Below are positions 23,945-49,898 of a DNA stretch of 64,000 bases, piece by piece. The notes under the pieces were generated by a model. The model worked only from the letters and a program-made list of their open reading frames with translations, was not told the DNA's origin and did not search any database. The position numbers were made by a program, and so were the translations under genes. This DNA comes from Squalus acanthias (lineage: Eukaryota). The stretch spans positions 186,001 to 250,000 of the forward strand of contig JASTWF010000339.1 of NCBI GenBank assembly GCA_030390025.1, given 5' to 3'. The stretch's first letter is position 1. Each line of letters opens with the position of its first letter.

Positions 23945-26568
23945 CTGACTGTCTCTGTTTAAATTACTCTGGACCCTGTCTTTGTTTATATTACACTAGA
24001 CCCTGTCTCTGTTTATATTACACTACACCCTGTCTCTGTTTATATTACACTAGACCCAGTCTCTGTTTATATTACACTAGACCCTGTCTCTGTTTATATT
24101 ACACTAGACCCAGTCTCTGTTTATATTACACTAGACCCAGTCTCTGTTTATATTACACTAGACCCTGTCTCTGTTTATATTACACTAGACCCAGTCTCTG
24201 TTTATATTACACGAGGCCCTGTCTCTCTTTATATTACACTCGACCCTGTCTCTGTTTATGTTACACAAGACCATGCCTCTGTTTATATCACACTAGACCC
24301 TGTCTCTGTTTATGTTACACTCGACCCTGTCTCTGTTTATGTTACACTAGATCCTGTCTCTGTTTATATTACTCTCGACCCTGTCTCTGTTTATATTACA
24401 CTAGACCCTGTCTCTGTTTATATTACACTAGACCCTGTCTCTGTGTATATTACACTAGACCCTGTCTCTGTTTATATTACACTAGACCCTGTCTCTCTTT
24501 ATATTACACTAGACCCTGTCTCTGTTTATATTACACCAGACCTTGTCTCTGTTTATATTACACTAGACACTGTCTCTCTTTATATTACAGCATACCCTGT
24601 CTCTGTTTATATTACACGAGACCCTGTCTCTGTTTATATTACACTAGACCCTGTCTCTGTTTATGTTACACTCAACCCTGTCTCTGTTTATGTTACGCTC
24701 GATCCTGTCTCTGTTTGTATTACTCTAGACCCTGTCTCTGTTTATATTACACTAGACCCTGTCTCTGTTTATATTACACTGGACCCTGTCACTGTTTATA
24801 TTACACTCGACCCTGTCTCTGTTTATATTACACTAGACCCTGTCTCTGTGTATATTACACTAGACCCTGTCTCTGTTTATATTACACTAGACCCTGTCTC
24901 TCTTTATATTACACTAGACCCTGTCTCTGTTTATATTACACCAGACCTTGTCTCTGTTTATATTACACGAGATCCTGTCTCTGTTTATATTACACTAGAC
25001 CCTGTCTCTGTTTATGTTACACTCAACCCTGTCTCTGTTTATGTTACGCTAGATCCTGTCTCTGTTTGTATTACTCTAGACCCTGTCTCTGTTTATATTA
25101 CACTAGACCCTGTCTCTGTTTATATTACACTGGACCCTGTCACTGTTTATATTACACTAGACCCTGTCTCTGTTTATATTACACTAGACACTGTCTCTGT
25201 TTACATTACACTAGACCCTGTCTCTGTTTATATTACACAAGACCCTGTCTCTGTTTATGTTACACTAGACTATGTTTCTGTTTATATCACACTAGATCCT
25301 GTCTCTGTTTATATTACACTTGACCCTGTCTCTCTTTCTATCACACTGGACCCTGTCTCTGTTTATGTTACACGATACCCTGTCTCTGTATATATTACAC
25401 TCGACCCTGTCTCTGTTTATGTTACGCTAGATCCTGTCTCTGTTTATATTACTCTAGACCCTGTCTCTGTTTATATTACACTAGACCCTGTCTCTGTTTA
25501 TATTACTTTAGACCCTGTCTCTGTTTATATTACACTAGACCCTGTCTCTGTTTATATTACACTTGACCCTGTCTGTGTTTGTATTACACTAGACCCTGTC
25601 TCTGTTTATATCACACTAGACCCTGTCTCTGTTTATATTACACTGAACCCTGTTTCTTTTGATATCACACTGGACCCTGACTCTGTTTATATTACACGAG
25701 ACCCTGTCTCTGTTTATATTACACGAGACCCTGTCTCTGTTGATATTACATAGACCCTGTCTCTTTTTATATTACACTAGACCCTGTCTCTGTTTATATT
25801 ACACAAGACCCTGTCTCTCTTTATATTACACTCGATCCTGCCTCTGTTGATATTACACTAGACCCTGGCCCTCTTTATATTACACTAGACCCTGTCTCTG
25901 TTTATATTACACTAGACCCTGTCTCTCTTTATATTACACTCGATCCTGCCTCTGTTTATATTACACTAGACCCTGGCCCTCTTTATATTGCACTAGGCCC
26001 TGTCTCTGTTTATATTACACTGGACCCTGTCTCTCTTTATATTACACTCGATCCTGTCTCTGTTTATATTACACTAGACCCTGTCTCTGTTTATGTTGCA
26101 CTCGACCCTGTCTCTGTTTATGTTACACTAGACCCTGTCTCTGTTTATATTACACTAGGCCCTGTCTCTCTTTATATTACACTAGACCCTGTCTCTGTTT
26201 ATATTACACGAGACCCTGGGGGAAAAATTAGGTCGCGCCCCGTTTGGGGCGCAAATATCGTCTGGACGCAAATATTAGCGCCTGACGCTAATTATCGCCA
26301 CTGACTGGAAACTTCACTTTTACCGCCCCGGGAGTTGAGTGGAGCGCTAAATCAGGCACTGCACACCTGTCTTAAGGCGCAAAGGCCGAGCAGTGAGGCG
26401 CTAACTCAGCGCGCGAGCGCAGCGCAGGTGCTGCCAGTTAGCGAGGGAACACCGGCCAGTTCTTAAAGCGGGGGGGGGGGGGGGCAACTTGCTCCCCAGC
26501 CACACCCTGCTCATTGCAGCCTTGAATCTCGGCCTGGAGAGACCTGTGAATCCATTTTGCTGCCAAGG

Positions 26569-28387
26569 ATGGAGAGGGTGAGAGAACGAGCTCATCGCTT
26601 CACCGAGCGGGCCTTGGATGCTCTGGTTGGCGCGGTGGAGCGCAGAAGATGTATACTCTTCCCTGAGAGTGGCAGGAGGCCTTTGCCACGCGAGTACAGA
26701 AGAGTGTGGAGGGAGGTGGCTCAGAGCGTCTCCTCCAGGAGCATGGTGCCCAGGACCCATGTTCAATGCCGCAAAAAGTTCAACGACCTCACTCGGGTCG
26801 TCAGGGTGAGTGGCTTTTTCTCAATACCTCTCCATCCCTCCATCTCAACCTCACTCTGTGGCCAGAGGGTCTTAAAACCCCAATGCACAACACTCATCCA
26901 ACACCTATGGCCCTTTCATGAAACACACACACACATTCCACACTTTGCATACAGTAAGGGCTATCACCTATGGGAGGCACATCAGGCAAGACCATGGCTG
27001 CATACAGTAAGGGCTATTCACCTATGGGAGGCACATCAGGCAAGACCATGGCTGTATATTTACTCAGACGCTGTCCTTTTTCTTGCAGGCCAAGCTGGCG
27101 CATAATCGGAGACAGCAGCAACAGGACAGGTGGAGGGCGGCCTCAGCTGCACCCCTCAGCGATCTTGAGGAGCGCGTCCACAGGATTGTGGCAAGCCGGG
27201 TGATCGGTCCCGTCGCCACTGGAGACGCCGACCCCGTTCTGGACAGCAATGGTAAGGTCATCACCTTTTTGTCCTCTGTCCTTCCACTTGTCCCTCACAA
27301 CACCAGCCTTTGACACTTTCAATCCAACTTGCTAACTCGCTGCACTTATTCCTCCCTTACTGCCACCCTGTCCTCACACTAAAGCCACTCTTGTACCTGC
27401 CTGCTTTCAGATGGTGATTCACCAGCTGAGGAGACGGGCCCTGAAGCTGCCACTGGGAGTGAAGCTGCAGCCGAGGAGGAAGAGGAAGCCGGAGCATCAG
27501 TGCCACCCTCTCCCGAGGAAGCCCATGCCCACACTGGGAACACGCCTTCCCTGGAGGGGAGCAGGGGGGAAGGGTCTGATGAGGGTGAAGCTCCAGGACC
27601 CAGCGGGCTGCAGCAACGCCATGGGGGTAGGGAAGAACGGGGGCCTTCTCCCCAGAGGGAGAGTATGCCAGAGACTCCTACTGCAATGGACGCAGAGGAG
27701 GAGCGGCTGATCGCAGAAATGAACACCCAGGCGGTGGGCATGCACACTGAGCTCATGGGTGCAGTGGGAAGGGTGCCCGAATGCATTGAGTCACTGGCAA
27801 GGAGTGTGGAGCACTTCGCTGTAGCACAGGCGGATGCCACACTAACGCTTAGTGCTGCAATTCAGTCACTGGCTGCCGTGATCCCATCTCTGACTGCTCT
27901 CATGCAGACTCAGATTGAGGCCACGCGAGCACAGACTGCTGCCAACCTCGATGGTTCGTTCACATGTCCCCGGGGCTCTCACCGCGCCGCAGCAGGCCAG
28001 CAATCTGTTCTCCAGCAGATTGCTCCGGATGCTGAAGTGCTGCCCCGTGGGAGTGCCAGTGTGTCGGGCGAGCAGGGAGTTGCTGTCCTCTCTCACGATG
28101 ACAGCATTCCTGCTGCCAACACTGTCACTTCTCCACTGCACTTGCCACCGCCTGTAGGACAGACTGCTGCCGCCCATGCAGAGTTGGTGCAGTCTGCAGC
28201 CGGGCCCTCCAGGCCCAGAACTGGTCGAGGCCGTCCTTCAGGGGCATCTGCAGTGTCAGGGTCTGACGATCAGCAGCCTTCCACCAGCCTTGCTGCAGCC
28301 ACTGAGGTCCCATTACGGAGGAGCAGTAGGGTTAGAAGGGGGGAAGTGCGCAAGGGAAGGAGATCACCCTCGAAGGGCAAAAAGTAG
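26569..28387 (+). CDS. Harbinger Myb/SANT-like DNA-binding protein; exons 26569-26805, 27089-27251, 27411-28387 (458 aa)
   Basis: Exon 1 encodes RAHRFTERALDALV...WREVAQSV...RTHVQCRKKFNDL (trihelix). Junctions AGG|GTGAGT, TTGCAG|GCC, ATG|GTAAGG and TTTCAG|AT splice in frame into ORF 27500-28387, which has an acidic middle and a basic C-terminus. Confidence 0.85.
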
Positions 28388-28699
28388 GAGGTGTGACAAA
28401 ATGCTGGTCATTTTTTTATTAAAGGCCGAGGTTCGTGGTCCAACTTTTGTTTAGTGTTTTGGACATTATCTCCAGGTTGTGAGAACCAGTTATGTTATTG
28501 ACTGTTTTTTTGTGTTTATTTCTATGAGTTTGTCATGAGGAAATGACACACACAGAGTTTGTAAAATAAATAAGTTTTTGTATTCAAAATATACATGTTT
28601 GGTGTTTGGAATTATTGGTGCCTTGGCCGGCTTAGGGGTTGCGTGCTGGGTTCATTGATGTTGTTAGCAATGGCAGAAGCCATTTCCACAGCAGGGGCC

Positions 28700-29851
28700 C
28701 TAGAAGCGGCTTGCTATCAGCCGTTGACGGACGGCCCTTGCAGTTTCACCATTGTGGGCCGCCCTCCCGCCTTGGTGCTGCTGATGATCATCCTCCTCGT
28801 CCTCTTCCTCCTCTTCCTCCTCCTCCTCTGGTGGTGCTCCAAGGCCTGGTGGCATTGGCTGGGTCCTGACGATTGCCATGTTATGCAACATGCAGCACAC
28901 AACTACGAAGTTGGATACTCGCTCAGGCGAGTACTGCAGGGCTCCTCCAGAATGGTCAAGACAGCGGAACCGTTGCTTGAGCACGCCGATTGTGCGCTCA
29001 ATGATGTTCCTGGTAGCTTGATGGCTCTCATTGTACCGCAGCTCAGCAGGGGTGTTGGGCGTACGGAGCGGTGTCATCAGCCAGGTGCTCAATGGATACC
29101 CCTTGTCCCCGAGAAGCCAACCAACTAGCTGATGCGGTGCCTCGAAAAGTTCTGCCACAGTAGTCTGGCGCAGGATAAAAGCATCGTGGCAGCTGCCAGG
29201 ATAGTGGGCATTGACAGTGAGTATCAGCTGTCTGACCAACTGAACATTCAAGGAATGGAACCCCTTTCTGTTCCGGAATTCCTCGGCATTCTCATGTGGA
29301 GCACGCAAAGCCACATGCGTGCAGTCAATGGCGCCCTGCACCATGGGGAAGCCCGCTATCCTCGCAAAGCCCAGAGCGCGGTCACGCTGCTTGTCTGGGG
29401 TCATGGGGAAAGAGATGAACTCTTGTCTCCTTTTAAAGAGGGCATTTGTGACCTGCCGGATGCAGCAATGCACCGCGAACTGGAAGATATTGGCGAGGTC
29501 CCCAGCAGCAGCTTGAAATGAGCCAGTAGCATAGAAGTTGAGAGCCACTGTGACCTTCACTGCCACCGACAGAGACGTCCTGGACCTCAGTTGAGGCTGC
29601 AGATCTGGCTGCAGCAGGTGGCAGAGCTCAGTGACCACCTCCTTGCTGAATCGCAGCCTTCGCAAACACAGCTCCTCAGACATATGAATGTAGGAGAGCT
29701 GTTCACGATATACCCTGGGAGGGTAAGCTCTCCTGTACATACGCCTGTTGGCCCTCCTCCGTCTGGCCATCATTGCCACTCTCTCTCTGCGTCTCTGTGT
29801 CCTCCGATTCAGCTGGAGCAGGACGACGCCCCCAATCAGTGCAGCCCCCAT
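28700..29851 (-). CDS. Harbinger DDE transposase (HARBI1-like)
   Basis: Motifs GAIDCTHV, NRKGFHSLNVQLV, PGSCHDAF, LLGDKGY and IIERTIGVLKQRFRCL. First ATG at 29851; the frame is open. Confidence 0.93.
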   Translation of the reverse strand: MGAALIGGVVLLQLNRRTQRRRERVAMMARRRRANRRMYRRAYPPRVYREQLSYIHMSEELCLRRLRFSKEVVTELCHLLQPDLQPQLRSRTSLSVAVKVTVALNFYATGSFQAAAGDLANIFQFAVHCCIRQVTNALFKRRQEFISFPMTPDKQRDRALGFARIAGFPMVQGAIDCTHVALRAPHENAEEFRNRKGFHSLNVQLVRQLILTVNAHYPGSCHDAFILRQTTVAELFEAPHQLVGWLLGDKGYPLSTWLMTPLRTPNTPAELRYNESHQATRNIIERTIGVLKQRFRCLDHSGGALQYSPERVSNFVVVCCMLHNMAIVRTQPMPPGLGAPPEEEEEEEEEDEEDDHQQHQGGRAAHNGETARAVRQRLIASRF

Positions 29852-31013
29852 AGTCTCTTTGCAAGCAAAGTAATGAAGGACAGCAACCAAAGTAGCAGCG
29901 AAGTTAGGATCAGTAGGCAAAACTACCTCACAAAGCGTTGACTCAATGCAGAAGTCTCTCTTTCTCTCTCTCCGAATCTCTCTCTCTCTCTGAGAATGAG
30001 TGGTGCAAAAATGTCAACCACAGAAAAAGACAGGAAGAGGCCCCCTTTAAATAGCGCACCCCCCAGCCCCACAGCGATTGATAGCGTTCCAGTCTTCCGG
30101 TCGTTGGATGCGCCAGGCGGTAAGGCAGGGGGCGCCACTCAATTTCCGCTCCGGGGCGCCACAAGGGCGTTGCACCATGGAATGACGTCACAATCTGCGC
30201 GCGCAGGTGGTCGCAGCGGTAAAGTTTAGCGCCGCCGCACAATGTCTAGTTAAGTTGCCGAGCGGCGCAAACATCGCTGCGCCCGGGCATTAGCGGCTTT
30301 GCGCCCCATTAGCGCCCTCTTAAGGCGCTAACGGGAGGCGCAACCAACTGAATTTTTACCCCCTTGTCTCTGTTTATATTATACTAGACCGTGTCTCTGT
30401 TTATATTACATGAGACCCTGTCTCTGTTTATATTACACTGGACCCTGTCACTGTTTATATTACACTAGACCCTGTCTCTGTTTACATTACACGAGGCCCT
30501 GTCTCTGTTTATATTACACTAGACACTGTCTCTGTTTATATTACACTGGACCCTGTCACTGTTTATATTACACGAGACCCTGTCTCTGTTTATATTACAC
30601 TAGACCCTGTCTCTGTTTATATGACACAACACCCTGTCTCTGTTTATATTACACTGGACCCTGTCTCTGTTTATATTACACTAGGCCCTGTCACTGTTTA
30701 TATTACACTAGACCCTGTCTCTGTTTATATTACACAACACCCTGTCTCTGTTTATATTACACTAGACCCTGTCTCTGTTTATATTACACTAGGCCCTGTC
30801 ACTGTTTATATTACATAAACCCTGTCGCTGTTTATATTACACTAGACCATGACTCTGTTGATATTACACCAGACCCTGTCTCTGTTTATATTACACTAGA
30901 CCCTGTCTCAGTTTATATTACACTAGACCCTGTCTCTGTTTATGTTACACCAGACACTGTCTCTGTTTATTTTACACAAGGCCCTGTCTCTGTTTATATT
31001 ACTCTAGACCCTC

Positions 31014-31513
31014 NNNNNNNNNNNNNNNNNNNNNNNNNNNNNNNNNNNNNNNNNNNNNNNNNNNNNNNNNNNNNNNNNNNNNNNNNNNNNNNNNNNNNNN
31101 NNNNNNNNNNNNNNNNNNNNNNNNNNNNNNNNNNNNNNNNNNNNNNNNNNNNNNNNNNNNNNNNNNNNNNNNNNNNNNNNNNNNNNNNNNNNNNNNNNNN
31201 NNNNNNNNNNNNNNNNNNNNNNNNNNNNNNNNNNNNNNNNNNNNNNNNNNNNNNNNNNNNNNNNNNNNNNNNNNNNNNNNNNNNNNNNNNNNNNNNNNNN
31301 NNNNNNNNNNNNNNNNNNNNNNNNNNNNNNNNNNNNNNNNNNNNNNNNNNNNNNNNNNNNNNNNNNNNNNNNNNNNNNNNNNNNNNNNNNNNNNNNNNNN
31401 NNNNNNNNNNNNNNNNNNNNNNNNNNNNNNNNNNNNNNNNNNNNNNNNNNNNNNNNNNNNNNNNNNNNNNNNNNNNNNNNNNNNNNNNNNNNNNNNNNNN
31501 NNNNNNNNNNNNN
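31014..31513. other. Assembly gap (500 N)
   Basis: Run of N within the satellite; the true size is unknown. Confidence 1.
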
Positions 31514-32325
31514 TACAACCTGTCTCTGTTTATATAACAGTAGACCCTGCCTCTGTTTATATTACACTAGACCCTGTCTCTCTTTATATTGCACTAGACC
31601 CTGTCTCTGTTTATGTTACACTAGACCCTGTCTCTCTTTATGTTACATTAGACCATGTCTCTGTTTATATTACACTAGACCCAACTCTGTTTATATTACA
31701 CTCGACCCTGTCTCTTTTTACATTACATTTCGCCCTGTCTCTTTATATTACACTCGACCCTGTCTGTGTTGGTATTACACTAGACCATGACTCTGTTGAT
31801 ATTACACTAGACCCTGTCTCTGTTTATGTTACACTAGATCCTGTCTCTGTTGATATTACACTAGACCCTGTCTCTGTTGATATTACTCTAGACCCTGTCT
31901 CTGTTTATATTACACTAGACCCTGTCTGTGTTTGTATTACACTAGACCCTGTCTCTGTTTATATTACACTAGACCCTGTCTCTGTTTATATTACACTAGA
32001 CCCTGTCTCTGTTTATATTACACTAGACCCTGTCTCTGTTTATATTACACTAGACCCTGTCTCTGTTTATATTACACTAGACCCTGTCTCTGTTTATATT
32101 ACACTAGACCCTGTCTCTGTTTATATTACACTAGACCCTGTCTCTGTTTATATTACACTAGACCCTGTCTCTGTTTATATTACACTAGACCCTGTCTCTG
32201 TTTATATTACACTAGACCCTGTCTCTGTTTATATTACACTCGACCCTGTCTCTGTTTATATTACACTCGACCCTGTCTCTGTTTATATTACACTCGACCC
32301 TGTCTCTGTTTATATTACACTAGAC

Positions 32326-34709
32326 CAGCGGTTCCCAACCTTTTCCTTTATGCGGACCACTACATCGTCATCAAAAGCTTCTGCGGACCACCAGCCGTTT
32401 AAAACATTTTTAACATCGCCTATGGCTGACGGGAGTCCAACTTCTATATCAACAGGTATTAAAAACGCAGCTGTTTCTAATCATTTATTATGCTCACTCA
32501 CAAATACATTGCACTGGCACTCGTCACAGCACATTTACCTGCAGTAGGCCTACCAGTGGGGAAAAGATAACACTTATCTAATGAGAAGGCGGAAGTTGTT
32601 TCACAGACATCAAACGCTGGATGTCAGGTTCCAGCGATAACAGTCTTAATCGGAGATCGGGTTCAACTTGCAGTTTATTTCGGCATTTGGTCTTCAATGC
32701 GACAAGCGCAGAAAATCCAGTTTCGCAAAGGTAGGTTGTGGGAAAAGGCATTACAAACTTTACTGCCTTGTCGGACAGTGCTGGATATTCCGAAGCAACT
32801 TTGAGCCAAAAGTCAGTCAGGTATTGCCGAGAGAAATCCTGCTTTAAAGCACTGTCACAGGACAGTTCCACAAGGTTGTCTTGCTCTGTCGAGGTCAGGC
32901 TGGCGAGGATGTCATCATCAAGGCTCGCAAAGGGATTTCGTATCCAGTTGAATTTTGTGTCAGGCACAGGGAAGTACTTGCGTAGGTTTATTTTCAAACT
33001 TTGGAGGTGCTCTCTGATGATATGTTTCACACTGTTTGGAAGCTGCATCTCTGCCGTGACCAAAAAATCAGACAGATTCGCAAACGAGTCGTAATTTGAC
33101 TGCTCAAGTCGTTTGGCCCACATCTCTATTTTCTTGATCATCACTTCTATTTTGTCCTGCACATGAAAGAATGTCACTGATTTTCCCTGAAGACGCAGAT
33201 TGAGACCATTCAAGTGATAGAAAATATCTGCCATATATGCCAATTTGTCCAGCCACTGAAAGTCACCGAAGCGATGTGAAAGTTCAAACTTGGAGTCCAG
33301 TAAAAAAAATCTCACCTCATCATGCAACTCTAAAAGACGAGTGAGTACCTTTCCTCGGGACAGCCAGCGGACCTCGGTGTGCAGAAGTAGTTGATGGTGA
33401 TCACTGCCCATCTCGTCACAAATAGCTGCAAATATTCGCGAATTCAGTGGAAGGGCCTTGATAGAATTAACAGTTTTAACGGCTTCCTCCAAAACGGTCT
33501 TGAGATCAGCAGGCATTTTCTTTGCAGCTAACGCCTCCCTATGGATGCTACAGTGAATGGATGATGCTGCCGGAGCCACTGCTCTTACACGCGTAACAAC
33601 CCCACTGTGTTGGCCTAACATCGCACGGGCCCCATCTGTGCCAAGTCCGACACATTTTGACCAATCAATCCCATTTTCAACAATGAAACTGTTCAACATT
33701 CCAAAAATAGCCTCTGCAGCTGAGTGTGTGGGCAACGATTTACAAAAGAGGAAGTCCTCATGTATCTCTCCATTGTGTTCATACCTTACATAGGTGATCA
33801 GGTTTGCAATGTCCGTTGATTCATCCTTTTGAAGTGCATAAAAACGACTCGCTTGCATTCTCGCTATTAGCTGATCACACAAGTCCTGAGCCATCTCATC
33901 AATTCTGCGTTGAACTGTGTTATCCGACAATGAAATCATGTTAATTTGCTTGCAGGCCCCCTCTCCCAGCATAACACCCACCATCTCCTTAGCTGCTGGC
34001 AATATCAACTCCTCCCCAATTGTGTGCAGCTTCCCTGTCCTTGCTATGAGCCTCGCTACCCGGTACGAGGCCTCCACCGCCTTAGGATTATCACTGCCTT
34101 TAGATGTGCATTCCATAATTGTCTTGCTACGTTGAAATTCTTTGAGCTGATTGTAAAAATATCCAATTGGCTTGGACACGTATTCCCCATACTTAGTCTC
34201 AAGATGACGGCGAAGATTAGCGGGCTTTAGGCTTTCATTCGACAGAACATCATAGCGCACGACACATACTGGTAATGGTTCGTTCTCAGTTCCAGTGTAA
34301 GTAAATCCCAGTTTTAAGTATTCACTGCTGTATTTTCTCCTCACTTTTCGCTTACTTTTGTTGTGCTGAGTTTCATTTGCTGATGTCTCACTGTCATTTT
34401 GACCATAGTAGAGAGTTCGCTGACGTGTACCAGATAAAAGCCATCGATCCATTTTTTGATTCCCGCGCTCTAACCGTCGAATTTTCTAAGAGCGTCGGTT
34501 CACATTGACGTCACGCAAAAGCGCCACACTATTTAAATTCAGAGAATCACAAGGATGTTTGTGAAGCATATTACATTGCGAATAATAATGAAATATAGAA
34601 TATGATACATACGAGGAACACGTAATTATATTATTATTACAGTATCATAATTATTTTTTTTCACGGACCACGTGCAGTACTCTCGCGGACCACAGGTTGG
34701 CAACCACTG
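32326..34709 (-). mobile_element. hAT transposon, Buster/Charlie group, both ends present
   Basis: TIRs CAGCGGTTCCCAACCT (32326) and AGGTTGGCAACCACTG (ending 34709). Subterminal CGGACCAC motifs occur at both ends. Confidence 0.95.
32578..34452 (-). CDS. Buster-type hAT transposase (624 aa), BED finger degenerate
   Basis: Motifs DESTD, TDGARAM, HCSIHREAL, HTEVRWLSRG and PTTYLCETGFS. The BED-like region CVVRY...LRRHLETKY lacks the second Cys and the last His. Confidence 0.9.
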   Translation of the reverse strand: MDRWLLSGTRQRTLYYGQNDSETSANETQHNKSKRKVRRKYSSEYLKLGFTYTGTENEPLPVCVVRYDVLSNESLKPANLRRHLETKYGEYVSKPIGYFYNQLKEFQRSKTIMECTSKGSDNPKAVEASYRVARLIARTGKLHTIGEELILPAAKEMVGVMLGEGACKQINMISLSDNTVQRRIDEMAQDLCDQLIARMQASRFYALQKDESTDIANLITYVRYEHNGEIHEDFLFCKSLPTHSAAEAIFGMLNSFIVENGIDWSKCVGLGTDGARAMLGQHSGVVTRVRAVAPAASSIHCSIHREALAAKKMPADLKTVLEEAVKTVNSIKALPLNSRIFAAICDEMGSDHHQLLLHTEVRWLSRGKVLTRLLELHDEVRFFLLDSKFELSHRFGDFQWLDKLAYMADIFYHLNGLNLRLQGKSVTFFHVQDKIEVMIKKIEMWAKRLEQSNYDSFANLSDFLVTAEMQLPNSVKHIIREHLQSLKINLRKYFPVPDTKFNWIRNPFASLDDDILASLTSTEQDNLVELSCDSALKQDFSRQYLTDFWLKVASEYPALSDKAVKFVMPFPTTYLCETGFSALVALKTKCRNKLQVEPDLRLRLLSLEPDIQRLMSVKQLPPSH

Positions 34710-37700
34710 GTCTCGTGTAATACAAACAGTGAGAGGGTCTCGTGTAATATAAACAGAGACAGGGTCTAGTGTAATACAAACAGAGACAGGGTCTAGTGTA
34801 ATATAAACAGAGACAGGGTCTAGTGTAATATAAACAGAGACAGGGTCTAGTGTAATATAAACAGAGACAGGGTCTAGTGTAATATAAACAGAGACAGGGT
34901 CTAGTGTAATATAAACAGAGACAGGGTCTAGTGGAATATAAAGAGACAGGGTCTAGTGTAATATAAACAGAGACAGGGTCTAGTGTAATATAAACAGAGA
35001 CAGGGTCTAGTGTAATATAAACAGAGATAGGGTCTAGTGTAATATAAACAGAGACAGGGTCTAGTGTAATATAAACAGAGACAGGGTCTAGTGTAATATA
35101 AACAGAGACAGGGTCTAGTGTAATATAAACAGAGACAGGGTCTAGTGTAATATAAACAGAGACAGGGTCTAGTGTAATATAAACAGAGACAGGGTCTAGT
35201 GTAATATAAACAGAGACAGGGTCTAGTGTAATATAAACAGAGACAGGGTCTAGTGTAATATAAACAGAGACAGGGTCTAGTGTAATATAAACAGAGACAG
35301 GGTCTAGTGTAATATAACAGAGACAGGGTCTAGTGTAATATAAACAGAGACAGGGTCTAGTGTAATATAAACAGAGACAGGGTCTAGTGTAATATAAACA
35401 GAGACAGGGTCTAGTGTAATATAAACAGAGACAGGGTCTAGTGTAATATAAACAGAGACAGGTCTAGTGTAATATAAAGAGAGACAGGGTCTAGTGTAAT
35501 ATAAACAGAGACAGGGTCTAGTGTAATATAAAGAGAGACAGGGTCTAGTGTAATATAAACAGAGACAGGGTCTAGTGTAATATAAACAGAGACAGGGTCT
35601 AGTGTAATATTAACTGAGACAGGGTCTAGTGTAATATAAACAGAGACAAGGTCTAGTGTAATATAAACAGAGACAGGGTCTAGTGTAATATAAACAGAGA
35701 CAGGGTCTTGTGTAATATAAACAGAGACAGGGTCTAGTGTAATATAAACAGAGACAGGGTCTAGTGTAATATAAAGAGAGACAGGGTCTAGTGTAATATA
35801 AAGAGAGACAGGGTCTAGTGCAATATAAACAGAGACAGGGTCTAGTGCGATATAAACAGAGACTGGGTCTAGTGTAATATAAACAGAGACAGGGTCTAGT
35901 GTAATATAAACAGAGACAGGGTCCAGTGCAATATAAACAGTGACAGCCTCAGTGTAATATAAACAGAGACAGGGTCTAGTGTAATATAAACAGAGACAGG
36001 GTCCAGTGTCATATAAAGAGAGACAGGGTCTAGTGTAATATAAAGAGAGACAGGGTCTAGTGTAATATAAAGAGAGACAGGGTCTAGTGTAATATAAACA
36101 GAGACAGGGTCTAGTGTAATATAAACAGAGACAGGGTCTAGTGTAATATAAACAGAGACAGGGTCTAGAGTAATATAAACAGAGACAGGGTCCAGTGTAA
36201 TATAAACAATGACAGAAACTAGTGTAATATAAACAGAGACAGGGTCTAGTGTAATATAGAGAGAGACAGGGTCTAGTGTAATATAAACAGAGACAGGGTC
36301 AAGTGTAATATAAACAGAGACAGGGTCCATTGTAAGATAAACAGTGACAGGGTCATGTGTAATATAAACACAGACAGGGTCTAGTGTAATATAAAGAGAG
36401 ACAGGGTCTAGTGTAATGTAAACAGAGACAGCGTCTAGTGCAATAAAAAGAGAGACGGGGTCTAGTGCAATATAAAGAGAGACAGGGTCTAGTGCAATAT
36501 AAAGAGAGACAGGGTCCAGTGTAATATAAACAGAGACAGGGTCTAGTGTAATATAAACAGAGACAGGGTCTAGTGTAATATAAACAGAGACAGGGTCTAG
36601 TGTAATATAAACAGAGACAGTGTCTAGTGTAATATAAAGAGAGACAGGGTCTAGTGTAATATAAAGAGAGACAGGGTCTAGTGTAATATAAACAGAGACA
36701 GGGTCTAGTGTAATATAAACAGAGACAGGGTCTAGTGTAATATAAACAGAGACAGGGTCTAGTGTAATATAAACAGAGACAGGGTCTAGTGCAATATAAA
36801 GAGAGACAGGGTCTAGTGTAATATAAAGAGAGACAGGGTCTAGTGAAATATAAACAGAGACAGGGTCTAGTGTAATATAAACAGAGACAGGGTCTAGTGT
36901 AATATAAAGAGAGACAGGGTCTAGTGTAATATAAAGAGAGACAGGGTCTAGTGTAATATAAAGAGAGACAGGGTCTAGTGTAATATAAACAGAGACAGGG
37001 TCTAGTGTAATATAAACAGAGACAGGGTCTAGTGTAATATAAACAGAGACAGGGTGTAGTGTAATATAAACAGAGACAGCGTCAAGTGCAATATAAAGTG
37101 AGACGGCGTCTAGTGTAATATAAAGAGAGACAGGGTCTAGTGAAATATAGAGAGAGACAGGGTCTAGTGTAATATAAACAGAGACAGTGTCTAGTGTAAT
37201 ATAAAGAGAGACAGGTTCTAGTGTAATATAAAGAGAGACAGGGTCTGGTGTAATATAAACAGAGACAGGGTCTGGTGTAATATAAACAGAGACAGGGTCT
37301 AGTGTAATATGAACAGAGACAGGGTCCAGTGTAATATAAACAGTGACAGGGTCTGTGTAATATAAACAGAGACAGAGCCTAGTGTAATATAAACAGAGAC
37401 AGGGTCTTGTATAATATAAACAGAGACAGGGTCCATTGTAAGATAAACAGTGACAGGGTCTAGTGTAATGTAAAAAGAGACAGGGTCTAGTGTAATATAA
37501 ACAGAGACAGGGTCTAGAGTAATATAAAGAGAGACAGGATCTAGTGTAATATAAAGAGAGACAGGGTCCAGTGCAATACAAACAGAGACAGGGTCTAGTG
37601 TAATTTAAACAGTGACAGGGTCTAGTGTAATATAAACAGAGACAGGGTCCAGTGTAATATAAAGAGAGACAGGGTCTAGTGTAATATAAAGAGAGACAGG

Positions 37701-40700
37701 GTCTAGTGTAATATAAACAGAGACAGGGTCTAGTGTAATATAAACAGAGACAGGGTCTAGTGTAATATAAACAGAGACAGGGTCTAGTGTAATATAAACA
37801 GAGACAGGGTCTAGTGTAATATAAACAGAGACAGGGTCTAGTGTAATATAAACAGAGACAGGGTCTAGTGCGATATAAACAGAGACAGGGTCTAGTGTAA
37901 TATAAACAGAGACAGGGTCTAGTGTAATATAAACAGAGACAGGGTCTAGTGTAATATAAACAGAGACAGGGTCTAGTGTAATATAAACAGAGACAGGGTC
38001 TAGTGCGATATAAACAGAGACAGGGTCTAGTGTAATATAAACAGAGACAGGGTCTAGTGTAATACAAACAGAGACAGGGTCTAGTGTAATATAAACAGAG
38101 ACAGGGTCTAGTGTAATAAAAAGAGACAGGGTCTAGTGTAATATAAACAGAGACAGGGTCTAGTGTAATATAAACAGAGACAGGGTCTAGTGTAATATAA
38201 ACAGAGACAGGGTCTAGTGTAATATAAACAGAGACAGGGTCTAGTGTAATATAAGAGAGACAGGGTCTAGTGTAATATAAACAGAGACAGGGTCTAGTGT
38301 AATATAAACAGAGACAGGGTCTAGTGTAATATAAACAGAGACAGGGTCTAGTGTAATATAAACAGAGACAGGGTCTAGTGTAATATAAACAGAGACAGGG
38401 TCTAGTGTAATATAAACAGAGACAGGGTCCAGTGTAATATAAACAGAGACAGGGTCTAGTGTAATATAAACAGAGACAGGGTCTAGTGTAATATAAACAG
38501 AGACAGGGTCCAGTGTAATATAAACAGTGACAGGGTCTAGTGTAATATAAACAGAGACAGGGTCTAGTGTAATATAAACAGAGACAGGGTCGAGTGTAAT
38601 ATAAAGAGAGACAGGGTCTAGTGTAATATAAAGAGAGACAGGGTCTAGTGTAATATAAACAGAGACAGGGTCTAGTGTAATATAAACAGAGACAGGGTCT
38701 AGTGTAATATAAACAGAGACAGGGTCTAGTGTAATATAAACAGAGACAGGGTCTAGTGTAATATAAACAGAGACAGGGTCTAGTGCGATATAAACAGAGA
38801 CAGGGTCTAGTGTAATATAAACAGAGACAGGGTCTAGTGCGATATAAACAGAGACACGGTCTAGTGTAATATAAACAGAGACAGGGTCTAGTGTAATATA
38901 AACAGAGACAGGGTCTAGTGCAATATAAAGAGAAACAGGGTCTAGTATAATATAAACAGAGACAGGGTCTAGTGTAATATAAACAGAGACAGGGTCTAGT
39001 GTAATATAAACAGAGACAGGGTCCTAGTGTAATATAAACAGAGACAGGGTCTAGTGTAATATAAACAGAGACAGGGTCAAGTGCAATATAAAGAGAGACA
39101 GGTCCTATGTGTAATATATACAGAGACAGGGTCTAGTGTAATATAAACAGAGACAGGGTCTAGTGTAATATAAACAGAGACAGGGTCTAGTGTAATATAA
39201 ACAGAGACAGGGTCTAGTGTAATATAAACAGAGACAGGGTCTAGTGTAATATAAACAGAGACAGGGTCGTGTGTAATATAAACAGAGACAGGGTCTAGTG
39301 TAATATAAAGAGAGACAGGGTCTAGTGTAATATAAACAGAGACAGGGTCTAGTGTAATATAAACAGAGACAGGGCCTAGTGTAATAAAAAGAGACAGGGT
39401 CTGGTGTAACATAAACAGAGACAGGGTCTAGTGTAATATAAACAGAGACAGGGTCTAGTGTAATATAAAGAGAGACAGGGTCCAGTGCAATATAAACAGA
39501 GACAGGGTCTAGTGTAATATAAACAGAGACAGGGTCTAGTGTAATATAAACAGAGACAGGGTCTAGTGTAATATAAAGAGAGACAGGGTCTAGTGTAATA
39601 TAAACAGAGACAGGGTCTAGTGTAATATAAACAGAGACAGGGTCTAGTGTAATATAAACAGAGACAGGGTCTAGTGTAATACAAACAGAGACAGGGTCTA
39701 GTGTAATATAAACAGAGACAGGGTCTAGTGTAATATAAACAGAGACAGGGTCTAGTGTAATATAAACAGAGACAGGGTCTAGTGTAATATAAACAGAGAC
39801 AGGGTCTAGTGTAATATAAACAGAGACAGGGTCTAGTGTATATAAACAGAGACAGGGTCTAGTGTAATATAAACAGAGACAGGGTCTAGTGTAATATAAA
39901 CAGAGACAGGGTCTAGTGTAATATAAACAGAGACAGGTCTAGTGTAATATAAACAGAGACAGGGACTAGTGTATATAAACAGAGACAGGGTCTAGTGTAA
40001 TATAAACAGAGACAGGGTCTAGTGTAATATAAACAGTGACAGGGTCTAGTGTAATATAAAGAGAGACAGGGTCTAGTGTAATATAAACAGAGACAGGGTC
40101 TAGTGTAATATAAACAGAGACAGGGTCTAGTGTAATATAAACAGAGACAGGGTCTAGTGTAATATAAACAGAGACAGGGTCTAGTGTAATATAAAGAGAG
40201 ACAGGGTCTAGTGTAATATAAACAGAGACAGGGTCTAGTGTAATATAAACAGAGACAGGCTCTGTGTAATATAAACAGAGACAGGGTCTAGTGTAATATA
40301 AACAGAGACAGGGTCTAGTGTAATATAAAGAGAGACAGGGTCTAGTGTAATATAAACAGAGACAGGGTCTAGTGTAATATAAACAGAGACAGGATCCAGT
40401 GTAATATAAACAGAGACAGGGTCTAGTGTAATATAAACAGAGACAGGGTCTAGTGTAATATAAACAGAGACAGGGTCTAGTGTAATATAAACAGAGACAG
40501 GGTCTAGTGTAATATAAACAGAGACAGGGTCTAGTGTAATATAAAGAGAGACAGGGTCTAGTGTAATATAAAAGAGACAGGGTCTAGTGTAATATAAACA
40601 GAGACAGGGTCTAGTGTAATATAAACAGAGACAGGGTCTAGTGTAATATAAACAGAGACAGGGTCTAGTGTAATATAAACAGAGACAGGGTCTAGTGTAA

Positions 40701-42974
40701 TATAAACAGAGACAGGGTCTAGTGTAATATAAACAGAGACAGGGTCAAGTGTAATATAAACAGAGACAGTGTCTAGTGTAATATAAAGAGAGACAGGGTC
40801 TAGTGTAATATAGAGAGAGACAGGGTCTAGTGTAATATAAACAGAGACAGGGTCTAGTGTAATATAAACAGAGACAGGGTCTAGTGTAATATAACAGAGA
40901 CAGGGTCCAGTGTAATATAAACAGAGACAGGGTCTAGTGTAATATAAACAGAGACAGGGTCCAGTGTAATATAAACAGAGACAGGGTCTAGTGTAATATA
41001 AACAGAGACAGGGTCTAGTGTAATATAAAGAGAGACAGGGTCTAGTGTAATATAAACAGAGACAGGGTCTAGTGTAATATAAACAGAGACAGGGTCTAGT
41101 GTAATATAAACAGAGACAGGGTCTAGTGTAATATAAACAGAGACAGGGTCTAGTGTAATATAAACAGAGACAGGGTCTAGTGTAATATAAACAGAGACAG
41201 GGTCTAGTGTAATATAAACAGAGACAGGGTCTAGTGTAATATAAAAAGAGACAGGGTCTAGTGTAATATAAACAGAGACAGGGTCTAGTGTAATATAAAC
41301 AGAGACAGGGTCTAGTGTAATATAAACAGAGACAGGGTCTAGTGTAATATAAACAGAGACAGGGTCTAGTGTAATATAAACAGAGACAGGGTCTAGTGTA
41401 ATATAAACAGAGACAGGGTCTAGTGCGATATAAACAGAGACAGGGTCTAGTGTAATATAAACAGAGACAGGGTCTAGTGTAATATAAACAGAGACAGGGT
41501 CTAGTGTAATATAAACAGAGACAGGGTCTAGTGTAATATAAACAGAGACAGGGTCTAGTGTAATAAAAACAGAGACAGGGTCGAGTGTAAGTTAAACAGA
41601 GACAGGGTCTAGTGTAATATAAACAGGGACAGGGTCTAGTGTAATATAAACAGAGACAGGGTCTAGTGTAATATAATATTTGACAGGGTGTAGTGTAATA
41701 TAAACAGAGACAGGTTCTAGTGTAATGTAAACAGAGACAGGGCAAGTGTAATATAAACAGAGACAGGTTCTAGTGTAATGTAAACAGAGACAGGGCAAGT
41801 GTAATATAAACAGAAACATGGTCTAGCCATCCCCTATGGACAAGCCCTGCGAATACACAGGATCTGCTCAGAGAGGAGGAACGCGATGGACACCTACGGA
41901 CGCTGAAAAATGCCCTCGTAAGAACGGGATATGACGCTCGACTCATCGATCGACAGTTCCGACGGGCCACAGCGAAAAATCGCATAGACCTCCTCAGAAC
42001 GCAAACACGGGACACAACCAACAGGGTACCCTTCGTCGTCCAGTACTTCCCCGGAGCGGAGAAACTACGCCATGTTCTTCGCAGCCTTCAACATGTCATC
42101 GATGACGACAAACACCTCGCTAAGGCCATCCCCATGCCTCCACTACTTGCCTTCAAACAGCCGCCTAACCTCAGAAGTACCATCGTTCGCAGCAAATTAC
42201 CCAGCTTTCAGGATAACAGCGACCACGACACCACACAACCCTGCCACAGCAAACTCTGCAAGACATGCCAGATCATCAACACAGTTACCATCATCACACG
42301 TGAGGACACTACCCACCAGGTACATGGTACATACTCATGTGACTCGGCCAACGTTGACTACCTCATACGTTGCAGGAAAGAATGCACCGCGGCATGGTAC
42401 ATCGGCGAGACCATGCAGACACTGAGACAACGTATGAACGAGCACCGCGCAACAATCGCCAGGCAGGATTGTTACCTCCCAGTCGGGGAACACTTCAACA
42501 GTCAAGGACATTCAGCCTCGGATCTGCGGGTAAGCGTTCTCCAAGGCGGCCTTAGGAAAACACGACAACGCAAAATCATCGAGCAGAAACTGATAGCCAA
42601 GTTCCGCACTCATGAAGACGGTCTCAATCGGGATCTTGGGTTTATGTCACGATACACGACGTGGTCCGGACTCGAGTCATCATTGGCTTGTTCACAGATG
42701 TGATTCCCAGTAAAAAAGTAAAAATTTTAAAGTTAATCGTTTTACATACAGACGGCAGCTTTTGACACGTTAGACCCCATGCGACTCCACCTCATTGTCT
42801 CAGTTGTATCTTGCTATGTCTTTGATGTGGTACCTTCCTGGCTGACCTGATTAACTTTATCACACCTCGGCAGATAAACAGTCAGGATGATTGAATTTAG
42901 TTGTCTGCAATTGTAAGTTACACATGCATTGTTCTCTATCTATATATGCTTTGACGATTCTGTATCTCCTCACT

Positions 42975-43012
42975 TCACCCGACGAAGGAGTTGTAACTCC
43001 GAAAGCTTGTGA
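42975..43012 (+). ncRNA. Minimal type I hammerhead ribozyme motif, 5' pseudo-LTR
   Basis: TCAC-CCGACGA-A-GGAGTT(GT)AACTCC-GAAA-GCTT-GTGA: stem I TCAC/GTGA, a perfect stem II, and palindromic AAGCTT. Confidence 0.72.
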
Positions 43013-43099
43013 TTTAAAATAAAATTGTTGGACTATAACCTGGTGTTGTGCGACCTCTCAATTTTGTCCACCCCAGTCCAACACCAGCATCTCCGCATC

Positions 43100-45757
43100 A
43101 TGACCACTATCGACACCACAAACTGCCGGCTCAAAGTGGAGAGAATCGCCAAGAAGATCGCGCATATCGACACCGACATCAAGTATCTACAGAGATGCAA
43201 GAAAGCAGACAAGATCCCGAAAGGACTACAGATCACGTCCCACTCAAGTCGACATACAACACAGACTACGCTGAGAGACTCTGCCGTCGTACCTCTCGCA
43301 CACTCCTCAACCATCTCGTACACCAGCTCTACAGCAAACGCCACAACCTCGAAACCAAGATAGAGTCCATGCTCTCAGCCTGTGCTCAGGACACAGCAGA
43401 CCAGTTACGAGACACCGCCAAAGAGACGAGGCAACGGAACTACGCTGCCTACATGCGCATCAAGAACAGGAAGCTTGAGAAACTCGGCATCACCACCAGC
43501 AGCAACCAAGCCTCCCCCGGTACCACGGCTGCAACCACAGGGAAGCCCATCGTCAATTTGTCCGACCATACCCTTCAACCAGACGAAATCGAAGTTCTCG
43601 CCCTAGGGCACAAGTTCTGCCCAACCACCAAAATGGACCCCATCGGTCTCGCGGCAGACACGGAGGAATTCATCAGGAGAATGAGGCTCCGGGAATACTT
43701 CCACAAATCCCAAGATGTCAGCAACAAACCCAATGAGACAATCAATGATCCAGAACAGCAGACAGAGGGACTCGCAGTGCAGGAACCGAAGAAAAAAGAG
43801 TCAAATTGGACCCCTCCGGAGGGTCGCTGCCCCAAGCTTGACATGTATGCTCAAGCTGTCAGGAGATGCATCAACGCCAGATTCATCAGCCGCACTCACA
43901 AGACAGTCCAGAATGTCACCCGAGCACAACGCAACGCCATCCACGCTCTCAAGACCAACAGCAACATCGTCATCAAACCAGCGGACAAAGGAGGAGCCAT
44001 CGTCATACAGAACAGAATGGACTATTGTAAAGAAGCATACCGACAACTGGACAACCAGGAACACTACAGACAGCTACCCGCAGATCCGACCAAAGAACAC
44101 ACCCGCCAACTCAATAGACTGATCAAGACCTTCGATCCAGACCTTCAAAACATCCTACACGCTCTCATCCCACGTACTCCCTGCGTAGGAGACTTCTACT
44201 GCCTCCCAAAGATACACAAAGCCAACACACCCGGACGTCCTATCGTATCAGGCAACAGAACCCTGTGTGAGAACCTCTCTGGATAGGTCGAGGGCATTCT
44301 GAAACCCATCGTACAGGGAACCCCCAGCTTCTGTCGCGACACTACAGACTTCTTACAGAAACTCAGCACCCACGGACCAGTTGAACCAGGAACACTCCTC
44401 GCCACGATGGACGTATCGGCACTCTACACCAGTATCCCCCACGACGACGGCATCGCTGCGACAGCCTCAGTACTCAACACCAACAACAGCCAATCTCCAG
44501 ACGCCATCCTACAACTCATCCGCTTCATCCTAGACCACAATGTCTTCACCTTCGACAACCATTTTTTTACCCAAACACACGGAACAGCCATGGGGACCAA
44601 ATTCGCACCCCAATACGCCAACATCTTCATGCACAAGTTCGAGCAAGACTTCTTCACTGCACAGGACCTCCAGCCAACGCTGTGCACCAGATACATCGAC
44701 GACATTTTCTTCCTTTGGACCCATGGCGAAGGATCACTGAAAAGACTACACGATAACATAAACAAGTTCCATCCCACCATCAAACTCACCATGGACTACT
44801 CCTCAGAATCGGTTTCATTCCTGGACACACGAATCTCCATCAAAGACGGACACCTCAGCACTTCACTCTACCGCAAGCCCACGGACAACCTCACGATGCT
44901 CCACTTCTCCAGCTTCCACCCTAACCACGTTAAAGAAGCCATCCCCTATGGACAAGCCCTGCGAATACACAGGATCTGCTCAGACGAGGAGGAACGCGAT
45001 GGACACCTACGGATGCTGAAAAACGCCCTCGTAAGAACGGGATATGACGCTCGACTCATCGATCGACAGTTCCGACGGGCCACAGCGAAAAATCGCATAG
45101 ACCTCCTCAGAAGGCAAACACGGGACACAACCAACAGGGTACCCTACGTCGTCCAGTACTTTCCCGGAGCGGAGAAACTACGCCATGTTCTTCGCAGCCT
45201 TCAACATGTCATCGATGACAACAAACACCTCGCTAAGGCCATCCCCACGCCTCCACTACTTGCCTTCAAACAGCCGCCTAACCTCAGAAGTACCATCGTT
45301 CACAGCAAATTACCCAGCTTTCAGGATAACAGCGACCATGACACCACACAACCCTGCCACGGCAAACTCTGCAAGACATGCCAGATCATCAACACAGATA
45401 CCATCATCACACGTGAGGACACTACCCACCAGGTACATGGTACATACTCATGTGACTCGGCCAACATTGTCTACCTCATACGTTGCAGGAAAGAATGCAC
45501 CGCGGCATGGTACATCGGCGAGACCATGCAGACACTGAGACAACGTATGAACGAGCACCGCGCAACAATCGCCAGTCGGGGAACACTTCAGCAGTCAAGG
45601 ACATTCAGCCTCGGATCTGCGGGTAAGCGTTCTCCAAGGCGGCCTTAGGAAAATACGACAACGCAAAATCATTGAGCAGAAACTGATAGCCAAGTCCCGC
45701 ACTCATGAAGACGGTCTCAATCGGGATCTTGGGTTTATGTCACGATACACGACGTGA
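43100..45757 (+). pseudogene. PLE RT/GIY-YIG ORF with three lesions
   Basis: ATG at 43100. Motifs IKPADKGG, LPKIHK, MDVSALYTSI, GTAMGT, RYIDD, CHGKLCKTC and WYIGET. Lesions: frameshift near 43235, TAG at 44284-44286, and a deletion of about 20 nt near 45573 relative to the 5' repeat. Confidence 0.9.
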
Positions 45758-46067
45758 TCCGGAATCGAGTCGTCGTTGGTTTGTTCACAGATGTGATTCC
45801 CAGTAAAAAAGTAAAAATTTTAAAGTTAATCGTTTTACATACAGACGGCAGCTTTTGACACGTTAGACCCCATGCGACTCCACCTCATTGTCTCAGTTGT
45901 ATCTTGCTATGTCTTTGATGTGGTACCTTCCTGGCTGACCTGATTAACTTTATCACACCTCGGCAGATAAACAGTCAGGATGATTGAATTTAGTTGTCTG
46001 CAATTGTAAGTTACACATGCATTGTTCTGTATCTATATATGCTTTGACGATTCTGTATCTCCTCACT

Positions 46068-46105
46068 TCACCCGACAAAGGAGTTGTAACTCCGAAAGCT
46101 TGTGA
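46068..46105 (+). ncRNA. Hammerhead motif in the 3' pseudo-LTR, core mutated
   Basis: Same as 42975-43012 except the core reads CCGACAA (G8 to A). Confidence 0.6.
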
Positions 46106-48559
46106 TTTAAAATACAACTGTTGGACTATAACCTGGTGTTGTGCGACCTCTCAATCTAGTGTAAAATAAACAGAGACAGGGTCTTGTGTATTATAAACAG
46201 AACAGTTTCTAGTGTAATATAAACAGAACAGGGTCTAGTGTAATATAAAGAGAGACAGGGTCTATTGTAATATAAACAGACACAGGGTCTAGTGTAATAT
46301 AAACAGAGACAGGGTCTAGTGTAATATAAACTGAGACAGGGCAAGTGTAATATAAACAGAGACAGGGTCTAGTGTAGTATAAACAGAGACAGGGCCTAGT
46401 GTAATATAAACAGAGACTGGGTCTCGTGTAATATAAACAGAGACAGGGTCTACTGTAATATAAACAGAGACTGCGTCTAGTGTAATGTAAACAGAGACTG
46501 CGTCTAGTGTAATATAAACAGAGACAGGGTCTAGTGTAATATAAACAGAGACAGGGTCTAGTGTAATATAAAGAGAGAAAGGGTCTAGTGTAATATAAAC
46601 AGAGACAGCTTCTAGTGTAATATAAACAGAGACAGGGTCGAGTGTACTATAAACAGAGACAGGGCCTAGTGTAATATAAACAGAGACATGGTCTAGTGTA
46701 AAATAAACAGAGATATGGTTTAGTGTAATATAAACACAGACAGGTCCTAGTGTAATAAAAACAGAGACAGGGTCTAGTGTAATATAAACAGAGACAGGGT
46801 CGAGTGTAATAAAAACAGAGACAGGGTCGAGTGCAAGTTAAACAGAGACAGGGTCTAGTGTAATATAATGTTTGACAGGGTGTAGTGTAATATAAACAGA
46901 GACAGGGTCTAGTGTAATATAAACAGAGACAGGGTCTAGTGTCAAATAAACAGAGACAGGGTCGAGTGTAACATAAACAGAGACAGGGTCTAGTGTAATA
47001 TAAAGAGAGACAGGGTCGAGTGTAATATAAACAGAGACAGGGTCTAGTGTAATATAAACAGAGACAGGGTCTAGTGTAATATAAACAGAGACAGGGTCTA
47101 GTGTAATATAAACAGAGACAGGGTCGAGTGTAATATAAACAGAGACAGGGTCTAGTGTAATATAAACAGAGACAGGGTCTAGTGTAATATAAACAGAGAC
47201 AGGGTCTAGTGTAATATAAACAGAGACAGGGTCTAGTGTAATATAAACAGAGACAGGGTCTAGTGTATTATAAAGAGAGACACGGTCTAGTGTAATATAA
47301 ACAGAGACAGGGTCTAGTGTAATATAAACAGAGACAGGGTCTAGTGTAATACAAACAGAGACAGGGTCTAGTGTAATATAAACAGAGACAGGGTCTAGTG
47401 TAATATAAAGAGAGACAGGGTCTAGTGTAATATAAACAGAGACAGGGTCTAGTGTAATATAAAGAGAGACAGGGTCTAGTGTAATATAAACAGAGACAGG
47501 GTCTAGTGCGATATAAACAGAGACAGGGTCGAGTGCGATATAAACAGAGATAGGGTCTAGTGTGATATAAACAGAGACAGGGTCTAGTGTAACATAAACA
47601 GAGACAGGGTCTGGTGTAATATAAACAGAGACAGGGTCTGGTGTAATATAAACAGAGACAGGGTGTAGTGCGATATAAACAGAGACAGGGTGTAGTGCGA
47701 TATAAACAGAGACAGGGTGTAGTGCGATATAAACAGAGACAGGGTCTAGTGCGATATAAACAGAGATAGGGTCTAGTGCGATATAAACAGAGATAGGGTC
47801 TAGTGTAATACAAACAGAGACAGGGTCTAGTGTAATATAAACAGAGACAGGGTCTAGTGTAATATAATGTTTGACAGGGTGTAGTGTAATATAAACAGAG
47901 ACAGGGTCTAGTGTAATATAAAGAGAGACAGGGTCTAGTGTAATATAAACAGAGACAGGGTCTAGTGTAATATAAAGAGAGACAGGGTCTAGTGTAATAT
48001 AAAGAGAGACAGGGTCTGGTGTAATATAAACAAAGACAGGGTCTAGTGTAATATAAACAGAGACAGGTTCCAGTGTAATACAAACAGAGACAGGGTCTAG
48101 TGTAATATAAACAGAGACAGGGTCTAGTGTAATATAAAGAGAGACAGGGTCTAGTGTAATATAAACAGAGACACGGTCTAGTGTAATATAAACAGAGACA
48201 GGGTCTAGTGTAATATAAACAGAGACAGGGTCTAGTGTAATATAAACAGAGACAGGGTCTAGTGTAATACAAACAGTGACAGGGTCCAGTGTAATATAAA
48301 CAGAGACAGGGTCGAGTGTAATACAAACAGAGACAGGGTCGAGTGTAATATAAACAGAGACAGGGTCTAGTGTAATACAAACAGAGACAGGGTCTAGTGT
48401 AATATAAACAGAGACAGGGTCTAGTGTAAAATAAACAGTGACAGGGTCCAGTGTAATATAAACAGAGGCAGGGTCTAGTGTAATACAAACAGAGACAGGG
48501 TCTAGTGTAATATAAACAGAGAGAGGGTCAAGTGTAATATATACAGAGACAGGGATTAT

Positions 48560-49278: not shown

Positions 49279-49898
49279 CGAACACGTTAAACCTTCACAG
49301 AATAATTACCAGTCATTTTTAGACTGGAAACTTAACCCTGCCGTTTCACTTTCAGTCAGGAACAGATCGCAGTTTGACACCAATCTCTGATTTGACAGCA
49401 CGTTTCCAGCATTCACCGTTGTTCTTCCTGATTCTAAACACAGTTGTAAAGGAGCCTTCTGTTCCGTGCCCAGGAGCTGTGACCCATGGGAGAGAGCGGC
49501 TGGGACACATTCCTTACAGGCCTCGAGATTAACCTGCACGGGGACATTGCTGTCAGTGAAGAGAGACGAGAAAGACCAAAGTGCCATTTGCCCCTCTCAG
49601 TGTGGCCCTGAAGGACTGTGTCCAGGCTGTAGTTCTGTTCCCGCCGTACGATCCTCCCCCCAGATTGTCCTTTCTGAGCTCCAGCCAGGTGATGCTAAAC
49701 ACTCAGGTGGGAACGACAAAAATCTACCACAATGTGTTTAAAGCAAAGCTGATTTATTTGACGTATATCCAGAATATTAATAACCCCTGTAACTGGGCTG
49801 GAGTTTAACATCAGCAGAAACAAACCCCAACTGTCAATGTGAACACGATTCAGGATGTAATTAATAACAGCAAAAACATCAGAATCCAACCTCTGCAG

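Follow-up and report, generated by a model that had tools for sequence, protein, structure and literature searches.

How can a tandem satellite run on one strand up to a DNA transposon and on the other strand beyond it, with the target sites of that transposon standing inverted at its two ends? The locus that raises this question lies in the window, a 64,000-bp stretch of Squalus acanthias DNA (G000:C2660:186001-250000) inside a 522,060-bp scaffold of a 3.7-Gb assembly. The window is rich in tandem repeats and in repeats with an 84-bp period, which we take to be zinc-finger exons. The features around the transposon are as follows.

23949..31012, + strand: forward 27-bp satellite past the gap, in two blocks (23949-26218 and 30365-31012) divided by a Harbinger-like insertion
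31014..31513: scaffold gap of 500 N, the only gap of the 522,060-bp scaffold
31514..32325, + strand: unbroken run of forward 27-bp satellite over 812 bp (30 monomers), by monomer mapping (block also bounded at 31519-32325)
32318..32325, + strand: left flank of 8 bp, CACTAGAC, which is the top-scoring Buster target of the forward monomer
32326..34709, - strand: full-length Buster-family hAT DNA transposon, 2384 bp, as judged by TIRs, relatives and ZBED5-like homologues
32578..34452, - strand: open transposase frame, 624 aa from ATG, by frame scan and homologue search
34710..34717, + strand: right 8-bp flank GTCTCGTG; the paralogues C3597 and C581 carry GTCTAGTG
34710..41826, - strand: reversed 27-bp satellite, about 264 monomers, by monomer mapping
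46155..48554, - strand: reversed array resumed past a Penelope-like insertion, by repeat and insertion mapping

The element, its flanks and its target preference

Based on its TIRs, its target consensus and its Buster1/ZBED5-related transposase, the element is classified as a Buster-family hAT. The TIRs are 15 bp long with 2 differences and start with CAGCGGTTCCCAACC and CAGTGGTTGCCAACC. Since the transposase is encoded on the minus strand, the window-right end is the 5' end of the element. The best named homologues of the transposase are ZBED5-like, with top hits at 60-65% identity and E values down to 1e-260, while a Pfam profile search and a PDB search gave no match for it. The positions that we take to be its BED finger read CVVR and RHLETKY. 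The open frame is not a special feature of this copy, as frames of at least 630 codons are open in 9 other copies among the 58 sequences scanned. Near-full-length relatives at 93-96% identity account for 38 of the 40 copies scored among 756 candidates, and the 35-bp left end matches at least 565 places, many of which belong to a related element sharing the ends only. ZBED5 is Buster1 according to PMC3606216, and the general anatomy of Buster elements is given in PMC12637253. As described in PMC3499496 and PMC3606216, the Buster family, including TcBuster and ZBED5/Buster1, has 8-bp nnnTAnnn targets, short TIRs and a single ORF of about 620 aa, all of which are shared by the window copy; the direct duplication, however, is absent from it.

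The left flank of the element is CACTAGAC (32318-32325) and the right flank is GTCTCGTG (34710-34717), which reads CACGAGAC on the other strand. The inverted arrangement reported in the initial annotation was confirmed base by base: CACGAGAC and the left flank agree at all but 1 of 8 positions, whereas read as a direct repeat the flanks differ at 5 of 8. The two flanks are inverted copies and not a direct 8-bp duplication. The C in GTCTCGTG is likely a later change, since both paralogues have GTCTAGTG. The described orientation of the satellite also holds for every 27-bp block within the window, all of them being forward to the left of 32326 and reversed to the right of 34709, and the left and right junctions fall, as stated earlier, at the same position of the monomer.

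Such flanks are exceptional in this family. Allowing for up to 2 mismatches, 49 of the 50 other copies with both ends on chromosome-scale contigs are flanked by a direct 8-bp duplication, the exception being L135. These 50 copies come from batches of 16, 15 and 19, with two tandem repeats of L007 left out; the batch giving 19 began as 40 copies, of which 21 showed no right end in the sequence examined. The claim that one insertion cannot produce the flanks is upheld: they are incompatible with a single ordinary insertion. For unselected lineages on high-numbered contigs, direct duplications were found in 3 of 5, so that hybrid flanks occur in 2 of 5 of these small-scaffold lineages against 1 of 50 copies on chromosomes (p = 0.02). 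This hint of an excess on small scaffolds may point to a compartment with much ectopic recombination, or to one of poorer assembly. The first non-direct lineage is duplicated at C251:130049-132418 and C3368:154031-156400 (L024 and L025), with L024 carrying 8 exclusive variants in 127 bp of the same element end. The second is duplicated on C625 and C1241 (L129 and L130), and L129 changes subfamily before element position 2074.

A TA at positions 4-5, i.e. nnnTAnnn, is present in 64 of 70 left flanks, which agrees with the Buster-type targets proposed initially and with the 8-bp target consensus known for TcBuster (PMC3499496). Scored with a matrix built from the 70 left flanks, CACTAGAC and GTCTAGTG are the top two among the 54 possible 8-mers of the monomer and hold 95% of the weight. 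An insertion into the 27-bp satellite, on either strand, would land at the CTAG site. The shared monomer position of the two junctions, noted earlier, is no surprise and needs no special cause because the target preference puts 95% of its weight there. From 565 left ends and the 86,979 exact monomers genome-wide, the expected number of insertions at the monomer site is roughly 2.6, a figure that assumes the present-day amount of satellite and counts related elements sharing only the end. By this rough estimate, two opposed insertions at the site are not improbable.

Chimerism relative to two paralogous loci

A search with the junction pattern matched the two junctions of the window and two further loci.

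C3597:233582-235956 and C581:576845-579220: paralogous elements that share the element end and the right junction with the window

At both loci a full element passes into reversed satellite through the same right junction, and its left flank is an integrase-coding repeat (retroelement). On the left the element stops exactly at its TIR, in an nnnTAnnn site of this repeat; 9 of 9 other correctly oriented repeat copies have the TA at positions 4-5 (1 of 10 was mis-oriented). Judged by their flanks, C3597 and C581 are likewise hybrids.

An alignment of the window copy, the two paralogues and 47 other copies, 29 of them comparable at the ends, was used to follow the haplotypes along the element. 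Left out were 8 of the 15 full-size copies from one batch (7 share ends only and 1 has a large insertion). Variants exclusive to the window and both paralogues number 4 in element positions 2220-2350 and none in 1-2219 (binomial p about 1e-5), whereas variants exclusive to C3597 and C581 number 15 in the body and none in the end (Fisher p = 0.00026). As the exclusive shared variants are confined to the end and the paralogue-private ones to the body, an exchange can be placed between 34544 and 34597.

34545..34596: putative exchange interval, between the last paralogue-private variant (34544) and the first variant exclusive to the window and the paralogues (34597)
34597..34709: element end of about 110 bp, apparently from the same insertion as C3597 and C581, by shared exclusive variants and junction

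The check proposed with the initial annotation, whether the halves of the element cluster with different copies, thus gives a positive answer, with a haplotype switch at 34545-34596. Genome-wide, a 35-bp pattern with three of the end variants matches only the window, C3597 and C581 at up to 2 mismatches, and an 8-bp deletion in the body of the paralogues matches only C3597 and C581. At sites that are polymorphic across the family, the body of the window copy departs from those of the paralogues, one such site being a 6-bp indel also found in 7 of 19 dispersed copies; this body is no nearer to the paralogues than to dispersed copies. Element positions 925, 984, 1245 and 1502 were not counted as window and paralogue exclusives, being present in a sister subfamily as well, nor was 1395, which is present in 2 other copies. 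Classing the shared variants as synonymous or non-synonymous was uninformative.

The window copy itself carries 5 exclusive variants in the 131 bp of its end (3.8%) and 15 in the 2169 bp of its body (0.69%), compared to background rates of 0.93% in the end and 0.72% in the body (p = 0.012 after allowing for the background ratio). This suggests that the end is foreign to the window body and comes from another, older copy. Two of the 29 background copies (L014 and L024) also have at least 3% exclusive variants in the same end, and the excess in the end of the paralogues is borderline (p = 0.056). The haplotype switch is measured against the paralogues, which could be the only recombinants, and the painting of haplotypes is blurred by the mosaic nature of the family.

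Proposed ectopic recombination and its alternatives

Recombination between opposed copies and alternative transposition had been put forward initially as the two candidates. The first is now the leading cause, as the halves of the element switch haplotype; the second, together with an assembly mis-join, keeps a smaller share of the probability. We consider it somewhat probable that ectopic recombination between two opposed Buster copies at the same monomer site made the strand switch. A copy Y would have inserted at the CTAG site of a monomer in one orientation, its 5' end and junction persisting here and in the two paralogous loci, and a copy X would have used this CTAG site too, but facing the other way. 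A crossover near the 5' end of Y (34545-34596) would then have joined the body and left flank of X to the end and right flank of Y, by which the satellite beyond the crossover would be inverted. The exchanged duplications would resemble one inverted duplication because both come from the same near-palindromic site. The flanks, the orientation, the target preference and the haplotype switch relative to the paralogues are observed directly. The window copy, and not the paralogues alone, would have to be the recombinant, X would have to have existed, and the inversion would lie within one array or array cluster.

Recombination is supported by the exceptional flanks, with 49 of 50 others being direct, and by the C251/C3368 and C625/C1241 lineages, which also have non-matching flanks and, in C625/C1241, a subfamily switch inside the element. 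Against it, two genome-wide patterns gave 0 matches for a reciprocal hinge or for a parental direct-duplication junction in satellite, in an assembly whose satellite regions are possibly incomplete. The whole 522-kb scaffold holds no second, opposed copy of the element, and no paralogue of the left junction (copy X) was found by the junction pattern.

Alternative transposition (hybrid element insertion) is a possible though doubtful origin. It would start from one array copy, one end of which was cut by transposase and rejoined to another monomer in inverted orientation; the window copy would be whole and only C3597 and C581 recombinant. A single satellite insertion would suffice, on both sides the window element joins the preferred site with an exact TIR end, the left junction of the paralogues is again an exact TIR end at nnnTAnnn (TA at 4-5 in 9/9), and a locally enriched monomer variant is common to both arms. 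An exchange of duplications and a new cut look alike here because both flanks are the same repeated site, and according to PMC2775673 and PMC1952172 the two routes give nearly alike outcomes. However, private variants should be even along such a copy, not 3.8% in the end and 0.69% in the body, and the exchange inside the element in this lineage requires homology and not transposase. In PMC2775673, and also in PMC1952172 and PMC8225341, hybrid element insertion is described as leaving non-chimeric copies. The second hinge that it predicts was not found on the scaffold or by the two genome-wide patterns.

An assembly mis-join, in which the 2.4-kb repeat would have led to the fusion of reads from two satellite loci that each carry a copy, is unlikely. 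The contig starts just 812 bp to the left of the element, and a merged consensus would also show a switch point inside it. None of the short-word contigs from four sequencing runs (at most two samples) spans the element, and none of those tabulated bridges a junction, but missing cover proves nothing; the 22 runs screened each had less than half of the words. A 110-bp low-depth contig present in all four runs matches the window at 34617 and 34624, where dispersed copies differ: the end type of the window exists in reads. It is possible that this contig derives from the paralogues and that one of the runs comes from the very sample that was assembled. A mis-join would be expected to leave two half-loci with direct-duplication junctions, and none was found by the two genome-wide patterns. 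The element copies moreover differ by 4-6%, and the contig beyond the gap also terminates in this satellite, on the matching strand; its block at 23.9-26.2 kb gives the best correlation (0.56) to the variant spectrum of the 812-bp arm. Nor does the right arm duplicate C3597 or C581, as its monomers are different and its variant-spectrum correlations are 0.15 and 0.01, respectively.

A monomer variant at about 1% genome-wide (891 versus 86,979 exact) stands at 3:17 in the left array past the gap and at 26:147 and 8:25 in the right arrays, and at 0 in five arrays elsewhere; counted as exact copies, it is 0:12 in the 812-bp arm and 0:4 in the 30.4-31.0 block. By this marker, which was picked post hoc among monomers that are not independent, both arms look local in origin. 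Linked variant pairs, compared between the 812-bp arm and nine arrays, gave p = 0.03 for the 30.4-31.0 kb block only, which is non-significant after nine tests, and the local alignment scores of this arm against the arrays were no better than those of a plain consensus array. A fold-back read artefact was rejected, as it would yield mirror arms and the arms are not mirrored.

Break repair with template switching or long gene conversion, patching the old end and junction between bodies and arrays without a reciprocal inversion, would fit the same short end on two different bodies and two different array types and the lack of a reciprocal product among the matches, but is highly improbable, as several switches are needed and the outcome is inseparable here from a plain ectopic crossover with later satellite turnover.

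Satellite arms, known inversions and the family at large

The description of the element as the hinge of a multi-kb satellite palindrome was overstated. The scaffold contig begins just 812 bp to the left of the element, at the 500-N gap, and the arms are not mirror-identical over kilobases: the first 30 monomers on the left include variants, but none of these reappears in register on the right. The locus is a strand switch at a transposon, and is not demonstrated as a palindrome. Elsewhere on the scaffold, arrays are reversed at 15.6-32.3 kb and forward at 267-271 kb, with no element at the switch. An inverted paralogous unit of minisatellites and 84-bp repeats, 84-94% identical, is present at 9723-15975 and 48561-54440, centred roughly at the element but across the gap; judged by this identity, it is too diverged to be a mirror created by the strand-switch event.

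Both satellite arms are interrupted by other mobile elements. A 4.1-kb PIF/Harbinger-like insertion with GGGG(G/T)AAAA ends lies within the forward satellite (26219-30364), with frames for DDE_Tnp_4 on the minus strand (28703-30013) and Myb/SANT on the plus strand (26467-27102). The Penelope-like insertion in the reversed array (41827-46154) has an RT, a weak GIY-YIG and 1.24-kb direct repeats at 96%, and TCTAG stands on both sides of it, the same CTAG site of the monomer as that of Buster.

Inversions made by recombining transposon copies are a known mechanism. According to PMC2775673, the Galileo inversion 2z3 of Drosophila buzzatii has, like the window, a transposon at the breakpoint, a chimeric sequence and a mapped crossover interval; its target duplications are exchanged, as those of the window may be. 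For 2z3, however, the uninverted state is known and so are the two breakpoints, which lie in unique DNA and involve an element of the P superfamily, whereas the window has one hinge inside satellite, putatively exchanged duplications that are one site on opposite strands, and a Buster/hAT element. The reversed-ends inversions of maize Ac/fAc (PMC8225341) likewise have a hAT at the junction and 8-bp sites at the termini, but that route gives a new matching duplication on two different elements. Recombination usually leaves non-identical duplications (PMC8225341); here they would be identical under recombination because the target is a repeat. In Anopheles gambiae 2Rj (PMC1952172), an 8-bp putative target duplication is also in inverse complementary orientation, and recombination and alternative transposition are described as inseparable. 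Its two 8-mers lie at separate copies of a low-copy repeat of 14.6 kb, those of the window at one 2.4-kb element.

The twist at this locus lies in the target: because it is repeated and near-palindromic, duplications exchanged there take on the look of one inverted duplication. An "inverted target duplication" in a tandem repeat need not mean unusual transposase chemistry. Strand switches in satellite arrays seldom have a readable cause; this one coincides with a transposon in which the exchange interval can be mapped, and recombination between opposed copies would offer a concrete route for arrays to change orientation. A search of titles and abstract starts, with subscription journals mostly outside its range, turned up nothing on a hAT at the strand switch of a satellite, nor on this 27-bp satellite together with a hAT in sharks. 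As a more speculative extension, Buster copies might be recurrent recombination hinges in small scaffolds rich in satellite and zinc fingers, where an old end is reused on two bodies and flanks and swaps at CTAG flip arrays and shuffle zinc-finger units. If true, an apparent inverted target duplication would be a searchable signature of hinge swaps.

The family as a whole (L002-L164) is strongly mosaic, with two subfamilies of different ends sharing variant blocks and many elements common only over the first 66 bp. In L002 (G000 C12:104010366 onward), a subterminal repeat has grown into a short tandem array inside the element end, giving a total of 2608 bp. At G000 C15:42968288-42977806, 3 element copies (L007, L010 and L011) follow each other at about 3.5-kb spacing with identical flanks, a tandem amplification, and similar left-flank triplets are present on C5 and C23.
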